Shown in pieces: positions 49,539 through 61,128 of a stretch of DNA of 64,000 bases; the stretch's first letter is position 1, and every line of letters begins with the position of its first letter. The notes under the pieces were generated by a model that saw nothing but the letters and a program-made list of their open reading frames with translations, did not search any database and was not told where the DNA came from. The stretch lies in assembly GCA_937905825.1 (NCBI GenBank), contig CALCXM010000039.1:1326-65325 (forward strand), written 5' to 3'. The translations under genes were made by a program, and so were the position numbers. Source of the stretch: an uncultured bacterium (lineage in GTDB: Bacteria > Planctomycetota > UBA1135 > GCA-002686595).

Positions 49539-49752
49539 GCTCAGCACGCAGGAGCAGAAACTCTGCAGACTCAAGTGCAGGAACTCTGCAAGCGGGTCCT
49601 GCATCCGGGACTAGCGTCCTCTCGCGCTGGATGCAGCCTCAGCGAAAGCCGCCCGGAAAGCCCTGTAACCCTGCGTGCATCTTCGGCATGCTGTCGCCAC
49701 TTCCCCTGGCAACACGCCTCCCCACCTCGATTCTCGAATCCCTCTCTCGTCC

Positions 49753-50877
49753 ATGAGCGGATCTCCTGCAGGCCCAGTCAAAATCGCGATTCTCGGCGCT
49801 CGAGGCATCCCAGCACGCTACGGGGGATTCGAGACGTTTGTGGATGAGCTGTCCAGACGGCTGGTGACGCGCGGGGTGCACGTGACGGTTTACTGCGAGG
49901 CCGAGGAGTCCATCGGCATGCACGAGTACGAGGGCGTGCAGCTCGTGCACGTGCCCGCCAAAGCTCCTGGCCCGGCGCGCACGATTTGCTACGACGTCGC
50001 TTGCCTGTGGCGCGCACGCAAAGAGTTCGACGTGGTCTACATGCTCGGCTACGGGGCGAGCTTCGCCTGCTTTCTCCCCAGGCTCTGGGGTCGCCAGGTG
50101 TGGATCAACATGGACGGACTCGAGTGGCTGCGATCCAAATGGAATCCATTGGCGCGCTTCTGGTTGAAGACCATGGAAGCAGTCGCCATGCGCACCGCCA
50201 CCCGGGTGATCTACGACAACAGCGCTCTCGCCGAAGAGATTGAAGGGCGGCGACACAAGGTCAAAAGCTCCAGCGTGCTCGAGTACGGCGCTCCCCTGCT
50301 GCGCGAACAAACCTCCAGCGCGCGCCTAGCGGAACTCGGCGTCACCTCGGGCGAGTACTACCTCGTCGTCTGTCGCTTTGAGCCGGAGAACCACGTCATC
50401 GAGATCGCCCGGGCCTACGCTGCGTCCGGGCTCGAACGACCCTTGATCCTGGTGGCCAACAAGGACATCGGCACCTCCTATGCCGCCGAGACCCTACTCC
50501 ACGACAGCGAGCTGGTGCGCTTCGTCGGCACCGTCTACGACCAAGACTTGCTCTTGCCCCTGCGCCAGCATTGCCGGGCCTACATCCACGGACACAGCGT
50601 GGGCGGAACCAATCCCTCGCTCTTGGAAGCCATGGGCTGCGGCAACTACATCCTCTCCCATGACAACCCCTTCAATCGCGTAACTTTGGCAGACGCGGCG
50701 CAGTTCTGGTCAAGCGAGGCCGAACTCGCCGAGAGGCTGGTGGAGTGCGAGGCGAAGAGCGAGGAAGACCTGCAAAGCAAACGGCAAGCGGTTCTCGAGC
50801 GCGTCGCCGACCGTTACACCTGGGACAAGATCGCCGATCGCTACCACGAGTTGATTCAGAGTAGCGTCGGAGGCTAG
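49753..50877 (+). CDS. glycosyltransferase, GT4 family with DUF1972-type N-terminus
   Basis: KIAILGARGIPARYGGFETFVDELSRRLVTRGVHVTVY is the DUF1972 signature. C-terminal GT1/GT4 motif (HGHSVGGTNPSLLEAMGCGNYILSHDNPFN). Confidence 0.8.
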   Translation: MSGSPAGPVKIAILGARGIPARYGGFETFVDELSRRLVTRGVHVTVYCEAEESIGMHEYEGVQLVHVPAKAPGPARTICYDVACLWRARKEFDVVYMLGYGASFACFLPRLWGRQVWINMDGLEWLRSKWNPLARFWLKTMEAVAMRTATRVIYDNSALAEEIEGRRHKVKSSSVLEYGAPLLREQTSSARLAELGVTSGEYYLVVCRFEPENHVIEIARAYAASGLERPLILVANKDIGTSYAAETLLHDSELVRFVGTVYDQDLLLPLRQHCRAYIHGHSVGGTNPSLLEAMGCGNYILSHDNPFNRVTLADAAQFWSSEAELAERLVECEAKSEEDLQSKRQAVLERVADRYTWDKIADRYHELIQSSVGG

Positions 50878-50911: not shown

Positions 50912-52534
50912 CTAGGGCGTCTCGCTGATCGGATCGATCAGGACCTCGTAGGTGTGCTTGTCCAAGTGCTTGGCGATCGGTCGACAGTGAGCGTCAAACC
51001 ACGCGCGCTCCGTGTCATCCGCCCAAACCGTGCCCACGGAGGGGTACATGTTGAGCTCGAGGGCGCGGTTGGAGATCACGAAGAATCCCGCGTTGGCTTC
51101 CTGCACGATGCGCGTGAAGGAGTGTCCGGCGTTTTTCCAGGGCAAGACCTCGGGACTCACGAGCGCACCCACATCGACCACCGGGTGCTGACTCTTGAAG
51201 CCGAAGACGCCGATCTCACCGATGACCACTTTGTTCGTGGCCCGCAACGGGGACTCGCCGTAGCTCTCCAGGAAGTCCGCGCTAGCGCCATAGCCCTGCA
51301 CGTAGGAGTTCAAGAGCGGACCGCGCTTGATGCTGGCTGCGGCACTGGCCAAGACCAAGAATCCGATCAGCGCCCACTGGGGAGCGCGACGTTTGCCGTT
51401 GGAAAGCCAAACGGGAATCGCTGGGGCCGCGGCGCACAGCAAGGCCACAGAAGACGGCACCGCGTACCAGGAAGCTTCGGTCGCCCCTTTGCCCACGATG
51501 TAGAAGCCGAGGTACGTTAGGTAGAAGCCGAGCCAGGCCCGCGAGGCCGCGCTGCCCGAACGAATGTTGCAACGGATCACCCAACCGATGGCGGCCACCA
51601 GGCCCAGGCTCATCCCCCATTGGATCGACATGGGGAAGTAGTCCACGAAGGGCAGGAAGCTCAAGCGCGGAACCGTGAACAGAGCATTTTGAAAGGAGAC
51701 GAAGCCGTCGTAGTGCGTCGAGTTCCAGCCGGACTTGGCGAGCATGGATTGCGGAATGATCGAGCCGTAGGTCAGAATCGCGAAGGTGCCCCAAGCGAGT
51801 CCTGGACCGAGCAAGGCCAAGAGCGCTTTGGGTTGCGTCAAGCGCTTGAGCGCGCCAGGGACTCCGTGTTGACGGCTCACCCCGTAGAGCAGGAAGGGCA
51901 CCAGCAGCACAGCCTCGGGGCGGGTGATCAAGGCCGGGCCAAACCAGATGGCCGACTGCAGCACCTTGCCTTTGCGCGCGGCCTGGGCGGCTCCGACCAG
52001 CAACATCACGAAGAGCGGCGTTTCCATGCCGAGCAGTTGGTTGTCCACGAACACCGGAGCCAGCAGGAACAACCCCAGCAGCACCAAACGGGAACGGCGT
52101 GGCAATTCCTGCGCGAGCAAACAGCCAGTCACCGTCCACAGCAAGGAATTGAGAACGACGACCGCCACTTCCACGTGACCGCCAAAAATGCCGTAGAGGC
52201 CAGCGGTGACCAAACCATAGAGCGGTGAAGTCAGCCCGAAGACCGCCTCCCCAGCGTTGTAAGCAAAGAAGCCCTGCTCGATCAGGTTGCGCGCGTAGCG
52301 CAGGTGAATGTACGCATCGTCCACCAAGACGAAGTCCGTGGCGAAGACCGCCAGCAGCACGCGGTAGATGGCGGTCCCGGCGAGCAGTGCGAGAATAGAG
52401 CGTGTGAACACACGCTTCGGCGAATCTGTCGAACTCTTTTTGAAAGCGGGCTCCAAGCGTTCCGGAAGCGAATCTCCCAGACTGTCACTGAGCTTGCGAG
52501 ACTGCTTTTGGGGGCGGGGATGGGTCAACGTCAT
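50912..52534 (-). CDS. polytopic membrane protein, GT-C-like glycosyltransferase candidate
   Basis: About 12 TM segments. Acidic first-loop motif VLVDDAYIHLRYARNL, reminiscent of GT-C enzymes. About 130-aa C-terminal soluble domain. Start ATG 52534. Confidence 0.5.
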   Translation of the reverse strand: MTLTHPRPQKQSRKLSDSLGDSLPERLEPAFKKSSTDSPKRVFTRSILALLAGTAIYRVLLAVFATDFVLVDDAYIHLRYARNLIEQGFFAYNAGEAVFGLTSPLYGLVTAGLYGIFGGHVEVAVVVLNSLLWTVTGCLLAQELPRRSRLVLLGLFLLAPVFVDNQLLGMETPLFVMLLVGAAQAARKGKVLQSAIWFGPALITRPEAVLLVPFLLYGVSRQHGVPGALKRLTQPKALLALLGPGLAWGTFAILTYGSIIPQSMLAKSGWNSTHYDGFVSFQNALFTVPRLSFLPFVDYFPMSIQWGMSLGLVAAIGWVIRCNIRSGSAASRAWLGFYLTYLGFYIVGKGATEASWYAVPSSVALLCAAAPAIPVWLSNGKRRAPQWALIGFLVLASAAASIKRGPLLNSYVQGYGASADFLESYGESPLRATNKVVIGEIGVFGFKSQHPVVDVGALVSPEVLPWKNAGHSFTRIVQEANAGFFVISNRALELNMYPSVGTVWADDTERAWFDAHCRPIAKHLDKHTYEVLIDPISETP

Positions 52535-52592
52535 GGGACTAGGCAGAAGAGAAAGTGATTTTTGCTCGGATCGCGGTATTGGAGGGCGGCAG

Positions 52593-54974
52593 TCAGAACG
52601 AACAACCAACGCGCTCCCCGGGGGCGCTGCGCGTCGATGTGGAATGGGCTGCGGGTTCAGGCTCCGCCATTGCAATTCCATAGAGCCGGTAGGCCGCGAG
52701 GGGCTCCACCTGCTCCCAAGAGAAGCTATCGTTCACCATGCTACGCGCCTGTTCGCCCCAAGCCTGTAGCTGGGAAGCAGACGCGCCTTGCAGGGCGTGC
52801 AGAGTTTGCGCGATGCCTGGGGCATCCGTCGTCGCTAGGTCGGGACCCGCTTCGCAAGCGAGCACGATCCCCTGCAGCTGCGTGCCTTCACTCACCAGCA
52901 AGGGCAAGCCGATGGCGGCAGCTTCGAGCACGGCCATGGGCATGCCTTCATGCCGGGATGGATGCACGAAGGCGTCCAGAGCGCGCAGTCGATCAACTTT
53001 CGTTTGCTCGAAGAGAGCGCCAGCAAACTCGACCTTGCCAAGCAGATCCGGTTGCATGGCACGCGCTTCCAAGGCAGCTCGATCAGGACCGTCGCCGATC
53101 AGCAACAACTCGCCGCAACCCCCTTCGGACAGGAACTGCGAGAAGCCATCGAGCAAGAGGTCGAGCCCCTTGGTGTGCGCGTCGAGTCGACCGCAGAACC
53201 CAAACTGCATGGGACTGTTTGGGTCACTGGCGAGTGCTTGTTGCGGGTTCAAGCTCTGCCCATTGGGCACCACGGCAATGCGCCCCAAGGGCATCCAACG
53301 CGCGATGGCGTGGGACTCGGCCGCGGTGAAGGCCTGCACCCCGCGGGCGCGGCGCAGAATGACGCGGTCCACCAGGGCCATGCAAATTCGTTTGAGCCAA
53401 GGGCGTTTGGCCAGGGCGCGCGGATTGTAGGCACCGTGGGGCGTGAAGACCAAGGGGATCCCCGCGCGCTTCAAGAGGCGCGCGGCGGAAGCCATCTCAG
53501 GCAGCAGGCCACCGTGCAAGTGCACGACAGCGGGTGCTTGCAACGTGCGAATCGTCTCGCGCAGGTCCTTCGGCAAGAGGCCACGGATGGCGCCACGCTT
53601 GAACAAGCGCAAACAATAGGGACGTTCCCCTGCGGGAGCGTCCGGCGTAGGCGTCAAGCCCCAAACTTCCACGGCGCGTCCCGCACGCACTTGGGCGCTC
53701 GCGAGACTATGGACCGCGCGGTTGACTCCGTTCAGCCGGTTGGGATTGGCCTTGCCAAGAGCCAGATGGATAACGCGCGTTTCTGCGGGCAGCATTTCCG
53801 GACGTGAGTCCTTTGCGAGGGATTCGTAGTGGGCCTCGAACTCGGCGCAGTAGCGCTTCACGCTGAAGCACTCCAGTTGGCGCTGCCTGCCGGCCTCCCC
53901 CATGGAACGTGCGAGATCCTGGTCAGACAAGAGTTCGTCCAGGCACCCGGCCAGGGAAACGGGATTGCCTGGCTCAAAGAAAAAGCCTGTGCGCTCTTCT
54001 TCAACGATCTCCAGCAGACCGCCCTGGCGCGAAGCGACGACCGGATTCGCGGCGCGCATGGCCTCGATGGCCACCAAACCGAAGGGCTCCGGCCGAGTGG
54101 AAGGCACACAGCAAATGTTAGCGGCGGCGTACAGCAACTCCGCATCCTTTTGAAACGGAATGCGAAGCACCACGTGCTCGAGGCCAGCCGCTTTGATCTG
54201 CTGATCGAGGGTGGCTTCGAAGTGGGCTTGCCCCTGAGGTGCCGATCCCGCCAACAGGTAACGGGCCTCTGGGTGAGTCCCATGCAGCTGCGCCGCTGCT
54301 TGAACCAAGAGCCCCTGGCCTTTCCAGGAGTTGATGCGTCCCGCCAGCAGGACGAGCGGCTGTTGTTCGGAAACGCCAATGGAACGACGGAACTCTTCAG
54401 AACGCTCCGCACTGACTTCTTCCACCTTCTCGATGCCGTTGAGCACCACGCGATTCTTCTTCGCCAAGCGCTTGCACCAGCGATCAAAGCTGCGGCGCGT
54501 GGCATCCGAGTTGTTCACCACGCGCGAAGACAAGGTCGCGAGAATCTTGGAATAGGCCTTCGCCAACCACGTGGGACGTTCGAGGATTTCATGAACATGC
54601 CAGAGATGGGGCACACCGGAGAGTTTGGCCCCGATGGCTCCCCCAAGCACGATCATGGTGTTGGTGTGAATCAGGCTTGGCTGGTGACGACGGGCCAAAC
54701 GCAAAACATTCAGCGCTCCCATGGGAACTTGCCAAGCCAATTTGACGAGGCCCCGGGGACCCAAGCTGGCCCGTTCACCGAGCCCCAGTTCACAAGTCTC
54801 GACCAGCGCACCGGCTCGCTCCAAGAGTTCAGCTAGTTCGCCACGACGGGGCAAGACAACCACCGCGCGCCAACGATTAGCGTCCAAGCCTTCAACGAGT
54901 TGCAACAAGGTGCGGTCGGCTCCGTAGAGCTCCGCCGAGGGATGCACAAAGAGAATGGTGCGGGGACGGCTCAT
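52593..54974 (-). CDS. bifunctional glycosyltransferase, fusion of two GT4 (GT-B) modules
   Basis: Module 1: RTILFVHPSAELYGADRTLLQ...PSTRPEPFGLVAIEAMRAANPVVASRQGGLLEIV. Module 2: VIHLALGKANPNRLNGVNRAVHSL...PSRHEGMPMAVLEAAAIGLPLLVS. ATG 54974 overlaps the upstream stop (ATGA). Confidence 0.8.
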   Translation of the reverse strand: MSRPRTILFVHPSAELYGADRTLLQLVEGLDANRWRAVVVLPRRGELAELLERAGALVETCELGLGERASLGPRGLVKLAWQVPMGALNVLRLARRHQPSLIHTNTMIVLGGAIGAKLSGVPHLWHVHEILERPTWLAKAYSKILATLSSRVVNNSDATRRSFDRWCKRLAKKNRVVLNGIEKVEEVSAERSEEFRRSIGVSEQQPLVLLAGRINSWKGQGLLVQAAAQLHGTHPEARYLLAGSAPQGQAHFEATLDQQIKAAGLEHVVLRIPFQKDAELLYAAANICCVPSTRPEPFGLVAIEAMRAANPVVASRQGGLLEIVEEERTGFFFEPGNPVSLAGCLDELLSDQDLARSMGEAGRQRQLECFSVKRYCAEFEAHYESLAKDSRPEMLPAETRVIHLALGKANPNRLNGVNRAVHSLASAQVRAGRAVEVWGLTPTPDAPAGERPYCLRLFKRGAIRGLLPKDLRETIRTLQAPAVVHLHGGLLPEMASAARLLKRAGIPLVFTPHGAYNPRALAKRPWLKRICMALVDRVILRRARGVQAFTAAESHAIARWMPLGRIAVVPNGQSLNPQQALASDPNSPMQFGFCGRLDAHTKGLDLLLDGFSQFLSEGGCGELLLIGDGPDRAALEARAMQPDLLGKVEFAGALFEQTKVDRLRALDAFVHPSRHEGMPMAVLEAAAIGLPLLVSEGTQLQGIVLACEAGPDLATTDAPGIAQTLHALQGASASQLQAWGEQARSMVNDSFSWEQVEPLAAYRLYGIAMAEPEPAAHSTSTRSAPGERVGCSF

Positions 54975-55702
54975 GCCACACACAGCTCCTCATTCGCAGT
55001 CCGCTTGCGAATCAGTTTGGCGGGCACTCCGCCGACGATGGAGTAGGGTTCCACGTTCCCGCGCACCACGGCTCCGGCGGCCACGATCGAGCCGTGACCG
55101 ATGGTGACACCGGAGAGGATCGTTACATTGCAACCGATCCAGCAGTTGTCGCCGATCTCAATTCCAGCGCGCGTCACCCCTTGGCTTTTGATGGTTGCCT
55201 CCAAGTCATCGAAGTTGTGGTTCTCCGGAATCAGTACGACCCTTGGACCGAACAAAACGTCGCGTCCAATGCGCACGTGGCCGGAAGCGCCGATCCAACA
55301 GTAGGCGCCGATGGCGCTACCCTCCCCCACTTCGATGCCTTGGCCCGGATCCATGCCGTAGTAGGAACTCGGTCGAATGCAGGCCCCGCGACCGATGGTC
55401 ACGCCGTTGCCGAGAATCACTCCCTGGCGCGAGAGGCATTGCACTTCCGCGCCCTCTTCGATCTTCACGTTGTGTCCGACGGATAGGTACCAAGGGTTCA
55501 AGATACGCGCCCCGCGTCCGACAAGCAGCAGCCCGCTGGAGCTCTTGACCCGCAACTTCAACCAGCTACCGCGCAAGAGGTTCGTGCCCAAGCGCCAGAA
55601 GACCGCGAGCACATCCAAGTCGGAGAGCATGTGCTCATTCGCCGCTGTAACGCTCCCCGTGCTGCGCACCAGGCGCAGGTACAACTTCTGAAGGAGGCTC
55701 AT
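54971..55702 (-). CDS. hexapeptide-repeat (left-handed beta-helix) O-acetyltransferase
   Basis: Hexapeptide repeats IGDNCWIGCNVTILSGVTIGHGSIVAAGAVVRGNVEPYSIVGGVPAKLI. ATGA overlap with the upstream GT4 gene. Confidence 0.8.
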   Translation of the reverse strand: MSLLQKLYLRLVRSTGSVTAANEHMLSDLDVLAVFWRLGTNLLRGSWLKLRVKSSSGLLLVGRGARILNPWYLSVGHNVKIEEGAEVQCLSRQGVILGNGVTIGRGACIRPSSYYGMDPGQGIEVGEGSAIGAYCWIGASGHVRIGRDVLFGPRVVLIPENHNFDDLEATIKSQGVTRAGIEIGDNCWIGCNVTILSGVTIGHGSIVAAGAVVRGNVEPYSIVGGVPAKLIRKRTANEELCVA

Positions 55703-56946
55703 GCGCGTTGCTCAGTGTAGTGCTCGATAGCACCGTCGTAGATCGAGTCCAGGTTGTTGCCCTTGCTCTCCCAGGTGGTCTCCGTCGCTGCCCAGTGGGC
55801 CGCTTGACGGGCCAGGCGACGGCGGCCGTCTTCGTCGCTCGCGAGTTGTTCGAGGGCGAACGTCAGGTTAGCAACGGTCTCCACTAGGCTGCCCGCGACG
55901 GGCACGCGCAAGCCGCGATCTTCCCCAACCATCTCGCCTGGACCGCCGAAGTCCAAGCAGACCACCGGGTTCCCTGCGGCCATGGCTTCGGGAACAACCA
56001 TTCCGGCACCTTCAAAAGATGGAAACAGAAAGACATCCGAAGTGTGCATCAGCCCCAAGGTCCGCTCGTGGGACTGGTTGCCGTGCAAGGTCACCTTGTC
56101 CCCAAGTCCGAGTTGTGCCACCCGCCGCTCAATCCAAGGACGCAAGGGGCCGTCCCCAAGCAGCTCGAGTCGCGCTTCGGGTCGACTCAAAGAGAATCGT
56201 GCGAAGGCATCAATCACCAACCGAACGCCCTTGAGATCCACCAGGCGACCCGCGTACAGCACGCGAAACTGACCATTGCGGAAGAAGCGATTGGGAGCCA
56301 AGTTTTGCGGTTCTGTGCCACAGGCCAAACAAGGTTGCAACTTGTGGAGGATGTCCCCATCCAAGCGACCGGGAAATTCGGTACCGAGACTCAAAATGCG
56401 ATCGGCGTTCTGGTGGGTGCGCTTGACGAAGGGGTCCACCGCTAGCAGAGTCCGCTTGATGGCCGCCTTGCTGACTTCACTGAGTCGCGAACGCACGTCA
56501 TCGCGCATCAGAAAGCGATCAGGAACGCGTGGGTGCTGGCCGACGGGACCCCAGACGAAAGGCTTGTCCAAGGACGCTAGGCCAGACGGAATCCAGCTCG
56601 AGGCAAAGGTCAAGTGGTGCACCACGTCAAAGTCGAATTCACGATCCAGTTGACGAGCCCTGCGGCCCATGGCCAGTTGCCACAGGTAGAAGTAGAGCAT
56701 CGCCCCGCGCGAACCGCGTTTCCAGAAGCGCGCCCAGGGCGGTAAATCGAACCCGATCACGTGCAGACGCTCGAGGCCTTCCGCGCGCGCCGCCGCTTCG
56801 ACCTTCTCTACATTGTTCTCGCGGGTGATCAGCCAGGTGTCATAGCGTTGGCTCACCTGCCGCGTCCAGTTCCAACCGATGCCAGCCTCAGACCCTAGTC
56901 CTGGCTCGCAAGCGTAGGCACTGAGCAGAATTCGTTTGTCACTCAT
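55699..56946 (-). CDS. glycosyltransferase family 4
   Basis: MSDKRILLSAYACEPGLGSEAGIGWNW... and C-terminal FLFPSFEGAGMVVPEAMAAGNPVVCLDFGGPGEMV (EX7E-type motif). ATG 56946 overlaps the upstream stop (ATGA). Confidence 0.8.
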   Translation of the reverse strand: MSDKRILLSAYACEPGLGSEAGIGWNWTRQVSQRYDTWLITRENNVEKVEAAARAEGLERLHVIGFDLPPWARFWKRGSRGAMLYFYLWQLAMGRRARQLDREFDFDVVHHLTFASSWIPSGLASLDKPFVWGPVGQHPRVPDRFLMRDDVRSRLSEVSKAAIKRTLLAVDPFVKRTHQNADRILSLGTEFPGRLDGDILHKLQPCLACGTEPQNLAPNRFFRNGQFRVLYAGRLVDLKGVRLVIDAFARFSLSRPEARLELLGDGPLRPWIERRVAQLGLGDKVTLHGNQSHERTLGLMHTSDVFLFPSFEGAGMVVPEAMAAGNPVVCLDFGGPGEMVGEDRGLRVPVAGSLVETVANLTFALEQLASDEDGRRRLARQAAHWAATETTWESKGNNLDSIYDGAIEHYTEQRA

Positions 56947-58307
56947 AGGGCACCTCCAGCAATCAAGGACCGCCCAACCGGACGCAAGCGTGGCGTGCGA
57001 CGGGGAGCCAAGTGTGGCGATAGGGTCCAGGTGTACAAAGCGTAGTGGAATAGCATCACAGGATTCGGAAAGCCGCAGATGCCGAAACCGGTCACTCCGG
57101 AGATCACGACCACTGTTTGGCAGGCAAGGATCAGAGTCCATGAGGACCGATCTTCCTTGGCCGAATGCAGATAGCGTCTGAAGCTAGCACGCAGGGGTAG
57201 AATGGTGATCATCATGAGGAACATGAAGCCTGGCAAGCCGGTGGACACGAGGGAGAACATGTAGGTGTTGTGGGTGTTCGTCCACCAGGTGCCGTGATGA
57301 GCAAAGGGGCCTACGTCGCTCAGCATCAGGTAGCCCGCGCCCAAGATGGGTGCCTGGGGTACCTGCTCCTGAAGCAGAGCCGCCCACAGGCTGGTGCGCC
57401 CGGTTCCCGACATCAAGTCCGCAGAACTTCCATCCCGCAGCACCCAAGCGACGAGTTCATCGATTTGCGTAACGCCCAGCACCACCGTTGCAATCACCAG
57501 ACCAATACCGAACATACGGCGGCGCGGGTTGCCACGATCCACTGGAATCCAGAGCACGAGCTGTCCAGCGATCAAGGTCACGAGAGCCGTTCGTGAACGG
57601 GACATCACCATCACGGAAAGCGCCATCACCAAAACAACGAAGGGCAAGACACGCTCGCGGGCAAAGACTCGTTTCCCACCCCGCTCTTCGCGCAATTCAT
57701 GAGTCGCCCAGAGCGTCAAGACCACAGCGCCAAAGGCCAACACGTTGGCATTCAGCATCTTGTGCCCGAGACGGCCCTGCCCCATGTTGTTCACGTGAAA
57801 GGCCAACTCGGGACGATTGATGACACTCCAAAGCGCCATCAAGAGCAGGGGCAAGAGCGCTAGGCAATGCCAGCGAGCCACCTTGCGCGGGGAGGCGAAA
57901 CGATCGTCCTCAAGAAAGAGCGTGATTCCAAAGAGGAAGAACACCAATAGCTCCCCGAGGCGCATGAAGGAGACCATCGGCATTTGGCTCTGGGGAACAC
58001 CGATCAGCGCCCACAGGAAGAACCCGATGACCGGGACCGAGCGACTGTTCAGAATCGCGCTGGTGGCTTCGCGCCGGCGCAGCAGAACCAGCATCATGCC
58101 CGCCGTGGACACCAGCCGAATCGAGAGCTTAAAGAGTGCATTGGAGCTTCCCAACGCGTCCATTCCCGTCATCCCGCCCGCTTCCGCATCCATGGTCAGG
58201 AAGGGCACGTAGGCGATGAAGTACATCAAGTAGGCCATCGACTTGGCACCGGACAGGTACCAAGCGAGAATGGTGGAGAGCAGGGCCACAAGGATGAAAG
58301 CACTCAT
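56943..58307 (-). CDS. O-antigen ligase / Wzy-type polymerase family membrane protein
   Basis: About 11 TM segments with a central periplasmic loop (HVNNMGQGRLGHKMLNANVLA...) typical of Wzy_C/O-antigen-ligase proteins. Embedded in the polysaccharide operon. Confidence 0.7.
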   Translation of the reverse strand: MSAFILVALLSTILAWYLSGAKSMAYLMYFIAYVPFLTMDAEAGGMTGMDALGSSNALFKLSIRLVSTAGMMLVLLRRREATSAILNSRSVPVIGFFLWALIGVPQSQMPMVSFMRLGELLVFFLFGITLFLEDDRFASPRKVARWHCLALLPLLLMALWSVINRPELAFHVNNMGQGRLGHKMLNANVLAFGAVVLTLWATHELREERGGKRVFARERVLPFVVLVMALSVMVMSRSRTALVTLIAGQLVLWIPVDRGNPRRRMFGIGLVIATVVLGVTQIDELVAWVLRDGSSADLMSGTGRTSLWAALLQEQVPQAPILGAGYLMLSDVGPFAHHGTWWTNTHNTYMFSLVSTGLPGFMFLMMITILPLRASFRRYLHSAKEDRSSWTLILACQTVVVISGVTGFGICGFPNPVMLFHYALYTWTLSPHLAPRRTPRLRPVGRSLIAGGAL

Positions 58308-59716
58308 GCGGCGAGGACCTCCTTTCGCAATGGGGTCTGCGTCCTCGTCAGGCGCGGCAGCAAAAGCTCTGCCAGTTCTTGGCGCGTGTCCCGCAACCAG
58401 TCGACTTGTTCGAACCCCGGGTGTTCTTGGTGGTTCAAGGCCTCGTCATCCGTGGCCGCCCGCAGCACTTCCAAGGCGATGAAGGCAATGCCATCCGCAG
58501 CACAGAGTCCGTGTTGTGAGAGCAACCCACTAGCTTCGCTCGCGAGCAGCGCTTCCAGTTCCGCGAGCAACTCTTTGGCCCCCACCCGCCGGACGAGAAT
58601 GCCCGTCTGCAGATGAAAGTGAATGAGATCCGAAAGGATCGGAGACTGCCAATTGGCGAACTCCCAATCGAAGGCAGCCAGTCGGTCCCCTTGCACGGCC
58701 AGGTTCCAGGGGGTGAAGTCCCCATGGGCAAGAGCGCAGGGAACCTCGCGGGAGCCAAGGGCGTTGCTGAGCGCAGCGTGCAAGCGGGTCATGCTCTCAA
58801 TCCACGGGCCATCCACCCGCTGCGCAAGCGCGTCCAGGTGTTCCCGACTGCGCATCAGGGTGGGTAGCTCAGCCCCCATCACCCGCGAGCCGGTGCGCTT
58901 GGCGAGTGCTTCTAAGAAGCAAACGTGGGCTGGCGTGAGCACGTCCGTCGAGCGCGAGCCAGCGACTGGCGATTGCACCATCCAGGCATGGGCTGCATGG
59001 CAACCGCTATCGAGCAAGCGGGGTGCGTGCTCTGCGCCCCAATGCAGGCTCTCGAAGCGTTCTAGGGTGCTGGCCTCATGGGCAACGCGCGGGCTCGCGC
59101 CTGGACCCAGGGCCACTTTCAAGAAACCTTCCGCGCGCCCGAGGGGGTCGCAGATTCGTAGGGTCGCTTTGCGCAGGAAGCCCGGGACGCCGAGCGAGAT
59201 CGCCACGCGACTTCCGGGACGTTTGGCAAGCCATGCGCAGGCGGGACCAGTGTTCACTTCCCCTTTGATGGCCACGAGCAGGCCGCTGAAACCGAACCGA
59301 TTGGCGCAACCAAACGATGCAGCGACTTGCAGCAGACGGCGCGCCGCGCGCCACAGGCGGCGGCCAGCGGGCAGCAGGCAAACACCGGCACGGAATCCCT
59401 TCCCATCCGCAGGCAACAGAACGTGACTTCCTCCGGTGCTCGGCAGCACCAGCCAACGGTGAGCTTGACCTTCCTTTGACCAGGCGCGTTCCAAGCTTGC
59501 CGTGAGAGATCGTTTGCCGAAGCGAGCGAGCAGACCCTGCTTCAAACTCCCTTGGATCGCATCCACCACCACCAGCGCTTGACCGCGCTTGCAAGAGCGC
59601 CAGGCAGTCTGCAGCAATTCTTCGTCCAAGGGCCCAGGACCACCTAAAACGATGGGATCCTGCAGTTCCCCAATCGTCAAGGGGAACCAGGCGTCGAGGC
59701 CATAGGGCAAGCTCAT
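58304..59716 (-). CDS. protein-kinase-like fold phosphotransferase (APH/choline-kinase-like) with about 230-aa N-terminal domain of unknown function
   Basis: Catalytic-loop motif ALAHGDFTPWNL (HxDxxxxN) followed by AAFDWEFA (the metal-binding Asp position). ATGA overlaps on both sides. Confidence 0.55.
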   Translation of the reverse strand: MSLPYGLDAWFPLTIGELQDPIVLGGPGPLDEELLQTAWRSCKRGQALVVVDAIQGSLKQGLLARFGKRSLTASLERAWSKEGQAHRWLVLPSTGGSHVLLPADGKGFRAGVCLLPAGRRLWRAARRLLQVAASFGCANRFGFSGLLVAIKGEVNTGPACAWLAKRPGSRVAISLGVPGFLRKATLRICDPLGRAEGFLKVALGPGASPRVAHEASTLERFESLHWGAEHAPRLLDSGCHAAHAWMVQSPVAGSRSTDVLTPAHVCFLEALAKRTGSRVMGAELPTLMRSREHLDALAQRVDGPWIESMTRLHAALSNALGSREVPCALAHGDFTPWNLAVQGDRLAAFDWEFANWQSPILSDLIHFHLQTGILVRRVGAKELLAELEALLASEASGLLSQHGLCAADGIAFIALEVLRAATDDEALNHQEHPGFEQVDWLRDTRQELAELLLPRLTRTQTPLRKEVLAA

Positions 59717-61128
59717 TGCTCTTCTCCTCCGAAGACTGCATCCAGCACATCGTTCACGGCTTCCTCCACCGTTCCGTTGTTGTGTACCAGGACAAAGCCT
59801 GGTTCAGTCAGCCCAAGGGTTTCATAGGCGGCGATTTGGAACGCACTCTCCTCCACACTGAGCTCCTGTTTGCGAGCCCGAACGCGTTCGAGCTGTGCGC
59901 TGATCACCACCACCTTGTCCGGCTTGGGAACCCAAGGAGACAACCAGTGCACCATCTGGGTTCCACGGCGAACACGGCAGCGCAAGGGGTCGACTTTGTA
60001 GTCGTAGAAGTAGCGATCGAACAGAATCAGCGAAGGCCGGCGACGCCGGGGCGTGATCTTCAGAGCGAAGCCCACGATGTAGTCCAGCCAGTAGTAAGCC
60101 ACGCGTACGTTCGACAAAAAGGCGCCGGAAGGCTTCGCGCGATGCGGGCGATCCATGTCTGCAAGGCTGTAGGTCGAACGACCCAAGTGCAGGAGCGTGT
60201 CGAGCTGTGGGATGACCATGGGGCGCAGGTGCCAAGTTCCAGACTCTGCACTGCGAAAGGCCGGCGCAAGCTCGCGCTCGAGCGCCTCCATCACCGTGGT
60301 CTTGCCCGCGCCGTCGGTCCCTAGAAAAGCCAAGAAGAGCCCACGGGGCCGCCAAAGAGGCCTGATTCGCGCTCCGTAGGCGAAGCTCAACAAACCCCAG
60401 GTGGAGCGCAGGGGAGAGCGGAGGAAGCGACGTCCAATCAGTTTGAAGCGGAGCCCGCGTGCTTCGCCCGACAAGGCTTCGTACTCGCCCGCAGCCAACT
60501 GCGCGCAAAAGCGTGCCGCCGCGCCGGCTCCCAAGAGGGTTCCCAGCAAGCTGCGGACCTCGCCGGAGTCATGGGCCAAGTGTTCCTTCAGAGATTCGGC
60601 ATAGTCTTGGCGCACCACTCCTCCTGAAAGGAAGGGCCCCATGAAGTTGGCCAGGGCCCCCGGACCCGGTTGGACAATGCAAAGTTCTCTGCTGTCCGCC
60701 GTCGTCGGCATGAGCAACTTGGAGTCCAAAAACGGCACCCCAAAAACCGCCTCACTGCTGTGCAAGTCCACCGAGAGAAAGTGGTGGGTCCCGTCTGCCG
60801 AACGCGCATGAAGCTGATACTGGGTGAAGAACCCCGCTTCCGCCTTCTGCCAAACGCGTGCGCCAAAATCCTCACAGGTCTCCGTGAGTAGCTCCTCGAA
60901 CAAGGAGCGTTCAGAGGCCGGCAAGAGGATGTCCACGTCCGAGCCCCGACGAATCTTTGGCAGATTCTCGTGGCCACGGAGGAATGCGTAGGCGATCCCT
61001 AGGCGTCCCAGGTTCTTGGCCAGATCGAGAACCAATGAGCCCAAGACGTGCTTGCCCGACGCGTCCTTGAGGGGACGCGGGGTGTCCAAGTCGGCCATGG
61101 GCCAGGAGGCGAGTTCGGTCGGTCCCAT
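59713..61128 (-). CDS. fusion protein: nucleotidyltransferase-like N-domain + thymidylate-kinase-like P-loop C-domain
   Basis: N-terminal YAFLRGHENLPKIRRGSDVDILLP (GS...DxD NTase-fold motif, like the 'uncharacterised nucleotidyltransferase' family). C-terminal FLGTDGAGKTTV (Walker A as in dTMP kinase) and LILFDRYFYD (DRY motif). Alternative start ATG 61098. Confidence 0.55.
   Translation of the reverse strand: MGPTELASWPMADLDTPRPLKDASGKHVLGSLVLDLAKNLGRLGIAYAFLRGHENLPKIRRGSDVDILLPASERSLFEELLTETCEDFGARVWQKAEAGFFTQYQLHARSADGTHHFLSVDLHSSEAVFGVPFLDSKLLMPTTADSRELCIVQPGPGALANFMGPFLSGGVVRQDYAESLKEHLAHDSGEVRSLLGTLLGAGAAARFCAQLAAGEYEALSGEARGLRFKLIGRRFLRSPLRSTWGLLSFAYGARIRPLWRPRGLFLAFLGTDGAGKTTVMEALERELAPAFRSAESGTWHLRPMVIPQLDTLLHLGRSTYSLADMDRPHRAKPSGAFLSNVRVAYYWLDYIVGFALKITPRRRRPSLILFDRYFYDYKVDPLRCRVRRGTQMVHWLSPWVPKPDKVVVISAQLERVRARKQELSVEESAFQIAAYETLGLTEPGFVLVHNNGTVEEAVNDVLDAVFGGEEQ

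Follow-up and report, generated by a model that had tools for sequence, protein, structure and literature searches.

Two kinase-fold proteins and a dedicated GT4 glycosyltransferase form a recurrent unit in bacterial surface glycan loci

Why does an exopolysaccharide (EPS) operon carry two genes for kinase-like proteins between its chain-length autokinase and its polymerase? The question is raised by a 64,000-nucleotide stretch of DNA from an uncultured planctomycete (contig CALCXM010000039.1, positions 1,326 to 65,325; the whole stretch is called the window below), in which two genes, here named A and B, lie between a Wzc-type tyrosine autokinase and a Wzy_C-family polymerase. The Wzx/Wzy route of polysaccharide assembly is usually described in terms of an initiating transferase, glycosyltransferases (GTs), a flippase, a polymerase, export proteins and simple acyl or pyruvyl tailoring. 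A first-pass annotation of the window recognized a fused nucleotidyltransferase (NTase) and thymidylate-kinase-like protein in gene A and an APH/choline-kinase (ChoK)-type protein in gene B, and proposed that they introduce a phospho-substituent. We find that genes A and B form, with one subfamily of GT4 glycosyltransferases, an obligate three-gene unit that is often fused. The most probable task of this unit is to add a phosphate-based group to the lipid-linked repeat unit or to process one there, a reading that we favor tentatively and weigh here against the alternatives.

Genes A and B are real genes and not chance open reading frames (ORFs) of a genome with 62% GC, since they have full-length homologues, confident AlphaFold models and a recurring gene order. 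Full-length homologues share 36-64% identity with gene A and 35-61% with gene B, leaving out the distant proteins P0013 (27%) and P0026/P0027 (26-27%), and the closest are found in metagenome-assembled genomes (MAGs) of Planctomycetota. The predicted local distance difference test (pLDDT) scores are 84 for gene A and 90.5 for gene B, and the gene order is repeated in other genomes. Both ORFs, their Wzc and Wzy neighbors and the quoted motifs (RGSDVDILL, residues 61-69 of A, and those in Table 1) are as the first-pass annotation gave them, and its ATGA coupling can be read directly from the DNA, with such overlaps at both the A/B and the B/Wzy junctions; at the Wzc/A junction the TGA stop of Wzc is followed by TTCA and the ATG of A, leaving a 4-nt gap. 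The GC fraction of 0.60-0.65 does not distinguish genes A and B from their neighbors. Translation of gene A may begin at Met11 (61098), as in a public gene call of 461 aa; residues 1-23 are unconserved and have low pLDDT.

A word-indexed search returned only 14 relatives for gene A and 18 for gene B. The full profile search with gene A, which covered 1.84 billion cluster representatives, gave 9,105 matches, 2,325 of them at E<=1e-30, and 136 of the 150 best-scoring matches are 430-520 aa long and cover most of the profile. These match numbers and lengths indicate that the gene A architecture is a large unnamed family. Co-occurrence was assessed in loci taken from reference genomes, the ORFs of which were scanned with hidden Markov models (HMMs) of A and B. 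A B-like gene lies on the same strand near a strong A match, usually as the next gene, in 24 of the 25 loci with enough flanking DNA (within 3 kb in 23 loci and about 4.4 kb away in L004), the sole exception being the short contig L021; the survey of the pair in other polysaccharide loci that the first-pass annotation had called for thus gave a clearly positive answer. The loci span eight or more phyla: Planctomycetota, Acidobacteriota, Myxococcota, Bacteroidota, Verrucomicrobiota and Gamma-, Delta- and Alphaproteobacteria. Carriers include Flavobacterium, Bacteroides, Akkermansia, other Verrucomicrobiota, Halioglobus and delta- and alphaproteobacterial MAGs, with Flavobacterium luteum NBRC 112527, Bacteroides rodentium JCM 16496 and Halioglobus sp. 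as cultured examples.

Clustering of the neighbor proteins identified a single GT4 subfamily (fam0) as the third constant partner, adjoining A/B in all loci. In every other locus, the GT4 next to A/B gives a full-length alignment with the fam0 GT4 of the window, at 88-481 bits, while the other GT4s of the same loci reach no more than 78 bits against it and align with the C-terminal domain only. The ORF of the window GT4 has 480 aa (55699-57141, minus strand) and shares about 200 nt with the end of wzy. The start of the conserved protein is Met66: its ATG (56946) forms an ATGA with the stop codon of wzy, and the homologous loci show the same overlap. For fam0 GT4s of three phyla, NCBIfam gives Myxococcus xanthus EpsH (NF041879) as the top match, aligned over the full length, at 64-95 bits against a cut-off of 800. 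EpsH adjoins Wzy in a Wzx/Wzy EPS locus (PMC7484181). As EpsH is the nearest named relative of the fam0 GT4s, this M. xanthus eps locus was inspected for A and B, and neither was found; genes 7443 and 7444 encode a Mg transporter and a histidine kinase.

Natural fusions join the members of the unit in single polypeptides. Protein P0033 combines A with full-length B (38% identity over 457 aa), and P0088, P0144, P0172, P0095 and P0131 combine A with an APH/ChoK-like kinase. P0082 consists of A, an intact methyltransferase (Methyltransf_25) and a kinase, and in P0158 A is fused to the fam0 GT4 (31% identity over 422 aa). In P0007 and P0035 a membrane-embedded initiating phosphoglycosyl transferase (Bac_transf) precedes A, with B encoded by the next gene; this fusion tethers A at the membrane, where lipid-linked intermediates are built.

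The module is not confined to loci of the Wzx/Wzy type. In a MAG of Akkermansia sp. (L020:7729-11290) the genes stand in the order GT4-B-A as a unit of three, flanked by succinate dehydrogenase, LolA-like, amidase and LysE genes, with just one GT2 nearby and no Wzx, Wzy, Wza or Wzc gene within 10 kb. The triad is therefore an autonomous cassette, the acceptor of which in Akkermansia may be lipopolysaccharide (LPS) or another glycoconjugate, and its placement between Wzc and Wzy is a planctomycete arrangement and not a feature of the module. Wzy also lies between B and the GT4 in L001, L003 and L027, which makes this a planctomycete and, in one case, alphaproteobacterial arrangement. The pair recurs in other polysaccharide loci, but it is tied to the GT4 subfamily and not to Wzc or Wzy, between which the first-pass annotation had placed it. 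A role specific to either of these proteins is ruled out, as the module occurs without them.

These loci also bear on a regulatory function, in which B would be a protein kinase and A a nucleotidylyl- or phosphotransferase, modifying Wzc, Wzy, the initiating transferase or the GT4 and so controlling polymer output. The fold of B is indeed protein-kinase-like, the genes of the window directly follow the tyrosine autokinase Wzc, and fusions to pathway enzymes exist; however, the module is found in loci without an adjoining Wzc and in one locus without Wzx, Wzy or Wzc, and its linkage is to one catalytic GT4 subfamily and not to regulators. As B in addition has the HGDxxxxN and DWE motifs of the APH/ChoK type, with Pfam and PDB matches to small-molecule phosphotransferases, we consider regulation highly improbable.

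The C-terminal domain of gene A was called thymidylate-kinase-like in the first-pass annotation, and its predicted structure bears this out. The 50 best Foldseek matches of the gene A model in the PDB are all thymidylate kinases (best E 8e-8, template modeling (TM) score to target 0.6-0.73), and in a viral structure library the model likewise matched only thymidylate or deoxynucleoside kinases. PF02223 was matched in 85 of 106 diverse gene A relatives; gene A itself scores 20.4 bits (23.9 for the isolated domain) against a cut-off of 27, and 20.9 against the cut-off of 83.25 for TIGR00041. Across the 106 relatives D66, D272, G273, G275, K276 and R372 are invariant, and R51, D64, D121, D371, Y373 and R383 are more than 90% conserved; R383 and R385, both conserved, belong to an arginine-rich lid. 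With these catalytic residues maintained, both halves of gene A look catalytically competent. Gene A shares with thymidylate kinase (Tmk) the fold, a Walker A motif with an acidic residue (GTDGAGKT), the DRY motif and the arginine-rich lid, but differs in its sub-cut-off scores, in a conserved insert of about 60 residues (R302-P303 ... R327-P328-H329 ... S334-G335), in the loss of base-reading residues, in the NTase fusion and in its fixed place in glycan loci. The segment after DRY (FYDYLVDPL) is unlike the corresponding Tmk segment IDSSLAYQG in the HMM alignment, and the residues that read thymine after DRY in Staphylococcus aureus Tmk are not kept.

These features decide whether the two genes are in the operon by coincidence, one as a housekeeping thymidylate kinase and the other as an aminoglycoside-resistance kinase, as the best database names of the two proteins ('thymidylate kinase' and 'APH') would suggest. 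Gene A reaches neither of the curated Tmk cut-offs, has an NTase domain in the same polypeptide and lacks conservation of the base-reading residues, and the pair is ATGA-coupled, keeps its synteny across phyla and occurs in fusions with glycan enzymes. From the cut-offs, the fusions and the synteny we rule out the housekeeping Tmk and resistance APH readings, and leave coincidental passengers next to no probability. Neither the confident housekeeping homology nor the loss of catalytic residues that the first-pass annotation had named as fatal to its proposal was found.

Gene A varies in its organization between lineages. In L013, L021, L025 and L026, from some Myxococcota, Bacteroidota and Verrucomicrobiota, it is split into an NTase-like gene (~325 aa) and a thymidylate-kinase-like gene (~215-230 aa), so that the two domains are separable units. 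Two adjacent A-like genes are present in Flavobacterium luteum (L014:9071-11998), and P0041 is a 910-aa A-A fusion; one copy of the duplicated A is far more diverged than the other and may be regulatory or inactive. Distant A-likes of about 470 aa (E 1e-22 to 1e-30) occur in Actinomycetota, and those of Gastranaerophilales and Muribaculaceae are stand-alone thymidylate-kinase-like proteins of about 220 aa. The B profile detected no B-like neighbor beside the distant A-likes in L028-L041 (Actinoplanes and other Actinomycetota) and L040-L062 (Gastranaerophilales and others), which may represent separate functional branches of the family.

The N-terminal domain of gene A conforms to the hG[GS]-x9-13-DxD signature, with L50-R51-G52-H53, ten intervening residues and D64-V-D66, and has a third carboxylate at D121 (D-L-H). 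Its predicted secondary structure (helix, strands 48-51 and 64-68, helix, sheet) is compatible with an NTase fold. The isolated domain gave no Pfam match, PF14907 included, even at E<=10, and none in NCBIfam; a profile search of the PDB gave only insignificant matches, such as 5uvd ('nucleotidyltransferase-like', E 1.2), and Foldseek matches of the whole gene A model were to kinases only and assigned no fold to the N-domain. The sole recurrent non-P-loop Pfam match among the 106 relatives is PF14907 (NTP_transf_5), found in five of them (best E 0.0022); the match of fusion P0158 has E 3e-4 and 20.8 bits against a cut-off of 31.2. The domain therefore looks, from its signature and these family matches, like a polymerase-beta-type NTase distantly related to NTP_transf_5, in keeping with the NTase assignment in the first-pass annotation.

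Gene B was assigned to the APH/choline-kinase type from its catalytic loop, and both profile and structure agree: PF01636 scores 25.9 bits, above the gathering cut-off of 23.2, and Foldseek matches the kinase domain to APH(3')-IIa (E 6e-8), APH(4)-Ia and the choline/ethanolamine-kinase family protein 3dxq (TM score 0.66). The conserved kinase features comprise the beta3 lysine K200, the alphaC glutamate E214, H331/D333/N338 and D350/E352, of which H331, D333 and N338 are invariant in 13 B-like proteins from eight phyla, and in the AlphaFold model the protein ends after the kinase C-lobe. As K200 and E214 of the N-lobe lie before residue 230, the kinase begins near residue 170, and the N-terminal part measures about 165 aa and not the 230 aa that the first-pass annotation had left unassigned.

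Cut out separately, this N-terminal part has no Pfam or NCBIfam match. Residues 1-85 match a class I methyltransferase in its C-terminal half, with the S-adenosylmethionine (SAM)-binding motif I missing, and residues 85-165 are a linker or extension common to all B-likes, including the 300-aa versions of Bacteroidota. When the B profile was aligned to the fusion P0082 with hhalign, B residues 10-52 fell on the end of the Methyltransf_25 domain, and the corresponding segment of P0082 has PDB matches exclusively to methyltransferases. The B-likes of Acidobacteria, Delta- and Gammaproteobacteria hold a degenerate full-length methyltransferase, and planctomycete B is without the SAM-binding half. 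By these alignments the N-terminus of B looks like the truncated remnant of a methyltransferase.

The surroundings of the unit give a hint at its substrates. Among 101 neighbor proteins surveyed from 13 loci, we found genes of Wzx/Wzy heteropolysaccharide synthesis (GT4, GT2, Wzy, Wzx, WecG/TagA, WecA-type transferase and Wza), together with acyltransferases, sugar-nucleotide enzymes and a GDP-mannose dehydratase, but no cytidylyltransferase, no transporter and no pathway for choline, glycerol phosphate, ribitol phosphate or phosphonate. With no substituent pathway nearby, ATP or another nucleoside triphosphate and the glycan itself are the simplest substrates. From the folds, the intact active sites and the three-gene linkage with its fusions we infer a substrate, an order of steps and a final chemical group as follows. 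A, B and the fam0 GT4 would act as one enzyme cassette on the cytoplasmic side of the membrane, with the undecaprenyl-diphosphate-linked repeat unit or, in some bacteria, another surface glycan as their substrate. The GT4 would add one sugar to the lipid-linked intermediate, and B would phosphorylate a hydroxyl of this sugar using ATP. The thymidylate-kinase-fold domain of A would then place a second phosphoryl group on that phosphate, or act on a nucleotide by-product, since it retains the features with which nucleoside monophosphate (NMP) kinases bind the acceptor phosphate, namely the acid of the P-loop, the arginine of DRY and the arginines of the lid. Finally, the NTP_transf_5-like domain would add a nucleotidyl or other phosphate-linked group onto the phosphate. 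The phospho-substituent decoration suggested in the first-pass annotation remains plausible as a hypothesis.

In one specific form of this scheme, the thymidylate-kinase-fold domain would accept the sugar phosphate made by B in place of an NMP and phosphorylate it to a diphosphate, and the NTase would form a phosphodiester or an NMP cap. Such a route would yield an exopolysaccharide bearing pyrophosphate, a nucleotide or a phosphodiester without any CDP- or UDP-activated substituent, and has no known counterpart in glycan synthesis; we regard this exact course as improbable.

Several points weigh against phosphate decoration in general. We know of no polysaccharide from a carrier strain that is phosphorylated, and our literature search returned no biochemical or compositional characterization of any module member. 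Thymidylate-kinase-fold enzymes normally act on free nucleotides and not on glycans. In Foldseek B is nearest to small-molecule kinases (APH, choline-kinase family and methylthioribose (MTR) kinase) and not to WbdD, a glycan-phosphorylating kinase discussed below, and the NTase assignment of the A N-domain draws on motifs, secondary structure and weak family-level Pfam matches. Lastly, synthesis of a glycosyl donor would explain the tight GT linkage equally well.

For donor synthesis, B would phosphorylate a sugar at the anomeric position (C1), as the APH-fold enzymes NahK and AmgK do. From this sugar-1-phosphate the NTase domain of A would make a nucleoside diphosphate (NDP)-sugar or other NDP-linked compound (NDP-X), and the fam0 GT4 would transfer the residue. 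The thymidylate-kinase-like domain would recycle the NMP or NDP by-product, or phosphorylate the donor at the 3' position, as in 3'-phosphoadenosine 5'-phosphosulfate (PAPS), coenzyme A (CoA) and the Campylobacter O-methyl phosphoramidate (MeOPN) donor. Production of glycan donors by a kinase joined to an NTase is well established, with HldE, Fkp, PAPS synthase, CoA synthase and Cj1415/Cj1416 as examples. The triad is self-contained, with one GT and three nucleotide-using domains, and stands alone in Akkermansia; the structures closest to B are small-molecule kinases; and the fusion of A to an initiating transferase that releases uridine monophosphate would fit an NMP-kinase role. GT4 enzymes, however, release NDP and not NMP, and known sugar-1-phosphate nucleotidylyltransferases have the RmlA/GlmU fold and not that of polymerase beta, which to our knowledge is not known to make NDP-sugars. 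Salvage would also require a free cytoplasmic sugar, and no transporter or hydrolase is linked to the module in the surveyed neighborhoods, while the methyltransferase-kinase architecture of P0082 and the vestige in B fit a modifier of glycan ends better than a precursor kinase. A pair of thymidylate kinase and PF14907 protein flanks phosphoenolpyruvate (PEP) mutase in one family of phosphonate gene clusters (bioRxiv 10.1101/2021.04.07.438883), which lends the donor route some further support. Were donor synthesis true, the module would define a new activation route; on balance we judge it unlikely, though it is the most serious rival to phosphate decoration.

The conservation of two successive kinases of different folds raises a further alternative, in which a hydroxyl is phosphorylated or pyrophosphorylated only transiently, as a leaving group or handle for the GT4, Wzy or an elimination or substitution step, and no phosphate remains in the finished polymer. 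Glycan phosphates needed by the next transferase are known from the LPS core, where WaaP acts before WaaQ and WaaY, and from dystroglycan, where POMK precedes LARGE, and phage kinases of 5-hydroxymethyldeoxyuridine (5-hmdU) DNA work in a manner similar to transient activation. Phosphorylation followed by elimination is reported for the kinase domains of class III/IV lanthipeptide synthetases (PMC10604976). In the 13 surveyed loci, however, no lyase or substituting enzyme is conserved with the module; transient activation seems improbable to us.

Known systems share parts of the logic proposed for phosphate decoration. In the Lic pathway of Haemophilus and Streptococcus pneumoniae, the choline kinase LicA, the cytidylyltransferase LicC and the NTase-fold phosphocholine transferase LicD cooperate. 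As there, the module would combine an APH/ChoK-fold kinase, nucleotide activation and an NTase-fold transferase to attach a phosphodiester-linked group to a surface glycan; in contrast, no signal of a LicC-type cytidylyltransferase, the LicB transporter or LicD (PF04991) was found in A, B or the 101 neighbors, and the Lic pathway has no thymidylate-kinase-fold enzyme. WbdD of Escherichia coli O9a, an N-terminal methyltransferase followed by a kinase, phosphorylates the terminal mannose of the lipid-linked glycan and then methylates the phosphate (PMC3482155). The likeness lies in a protein-kinase-like kinase (PDB 4azw/4uw0) that acts on a sugar hydroxyl of a polyprenol-linked glycan, there capping the polymannose O antigen, and in the order of methyltransferase and kinase, of which B holds a vestige and P0082 an intact version. 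WbdD nevertheless gives just a weak sequence match to B (E 0.017 over ~50 residues) and lies outside its 50 best Foldseek matches; B is without the SAM-motif half of the methyltransferase and without the C-terminal coiled coil, WbdD serves an ABC-transporter-type pathway whereas the locus in the window, with Wzc and Wzy, is of the Wzx/Wzy type, and neither an NTase nor a P-loop kinase accompanies WbdD. Several module loci also contain class I methyltransferases as stand-alone genes (L001:967-2726, L018:6946-7605), which may be relevant if the phosphate of the module is methylated as in the products of WbdD.

In the pseudomycoidin cluster, the kinase PsmK phosphorylates its target once or more, and a hexose is then attached to the phosphate by the NTase-fold protein PsmN (PMC6993621). 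This pairs a P-loop kinase with an uncharacterized NTase-fold protein with an essential two-aspartate motif, both of which gene A has in one polypeptide. The substrate, however, is a serine of a lasso peptide and not a glycan, PsmK is HPr-kinase-like and not thymidylate-kinase-like, and there is no APH-fold kinase or GT4; PsmN is presumably a member of PF14907. Taken together, the domains of the module belong or relate to known superfamilies: the kinase of B is a member of APH/ChoK, and the two domains of A are relatives of thymidylate kinase, by fold, and distantly of NTP_transf_5. WbdD, the Lic pathway, PsmK/PsmN and the MeOPN pathway each share part of the module's logic and none its composition. 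Searching the literature for the module and its domain combinations, we found no characterizing paper, and PF14907 appeared in passing only, next to PEP mutase; in the searches made, we thus found no characterized counterpart of the system.

From Planctomycetota to the Bacteroides and Akkermansia of the human gut, the same constant combination is met again: two kinases that differ in fold, a domain of the NTase fold and a GT4 dedicated to them. If phosphate decoration is correct, many environmental and gut exopolysaccharides would bear an unrecognized charged modification, with a bearing on biofilm properties, phage and immune recognition and mineral binding.

Table 1. Features of the A/B/GT4 locus, with positions in the window and the basis of each assignment.
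Feature	Position	Strand	Basis
Gene A, 471 aa, NTase-like + thymidylate-kinase-fold kinase	59713-61128	(-)	ORF, homologues, AlphaFold (AF2)
A N-domain, residues 28-259 (NTP_transf_5-like NTase core 28-135 + helical bundle 154-259)	60352-61047	(-)	
A N-domain signature G52-x11-D64-V-D66	60931-60975	(-)	motif verified
A third acidic residue D121, with H123	60760-60768	(-)	motif verified
A C-domain, residues 262-466, thymidylate-kinase-fold P-loop kinase	59731-60345	(-)	Foldseek, PF02223 in relatives
A Walker A GTDGAGKTT, residues 270-278	60295-60321	(-)	motif
A DRY, residues 371-373	60010-60018	(-)	motif
Gene B, 470 aa, APH/choline-kinase-fold kinase + vestigial methyltransferase-like N-part	58304-59716	(-)	ORF, PF01636, AlphaFold (AF2)
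B N-part, residues 1-168	59213-59716	(-)	hhalign, alignments A5 and A7
B kinase domain, residues 170-460	58337-59209	(-)	Foldseek, PF01636
B catalytic loop HGDFTPWN, residues 331-338	58703-58726	(-)	motif
B metal-binding DWE (FDWE, residues 349-352)	58661-58669	(-)	motif
fam0 GT4 glycosyltransferase, 415 aa	55699-56946	(-)	full-length matches across loci; start verified
Wzc-type chain-length/tyrosine autokinase, 948 aa	61133-63979	(-)	Wzz, GNVR, AAA_31 domains; TIGR01007 above cut-off
Wzy_C-family polymerase, 454 aa	56943-58307	(-)	PF04932 E 1e-13
Hexapeptide acyltransferase, downstream context	54971-55702	(-)	Pfam; same order in L001 and L003
Double GT4, downstream context	52593-54983	(-)	Pfam; same order in L001 and L003

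Two further genes lie beyond the downstream context of the unit. A 589-aa multi-pass membrane protein (50912-52681, minus strand) has no Pfam match and has a homologue at the same position in L011; it weakly matches NCBIfam NF046093, 'AZOBR_p60025 family cell surface glycopolymer formation protein' (E 1e-6, below cut-off), and may be a GT-C-like or flippase-like component of the locus. The divergent gene at 49675-50877 (plus strand) encodes a DUF1972-type GT4 that resembles the beta-1,4-rhamnosyltransferase Cps2T (E 1e-72, below cut-off). L001, L003, L004 and L009 have this GT4 at the edge of the locus as well, a hint that the repeat unit contains rhamnose.

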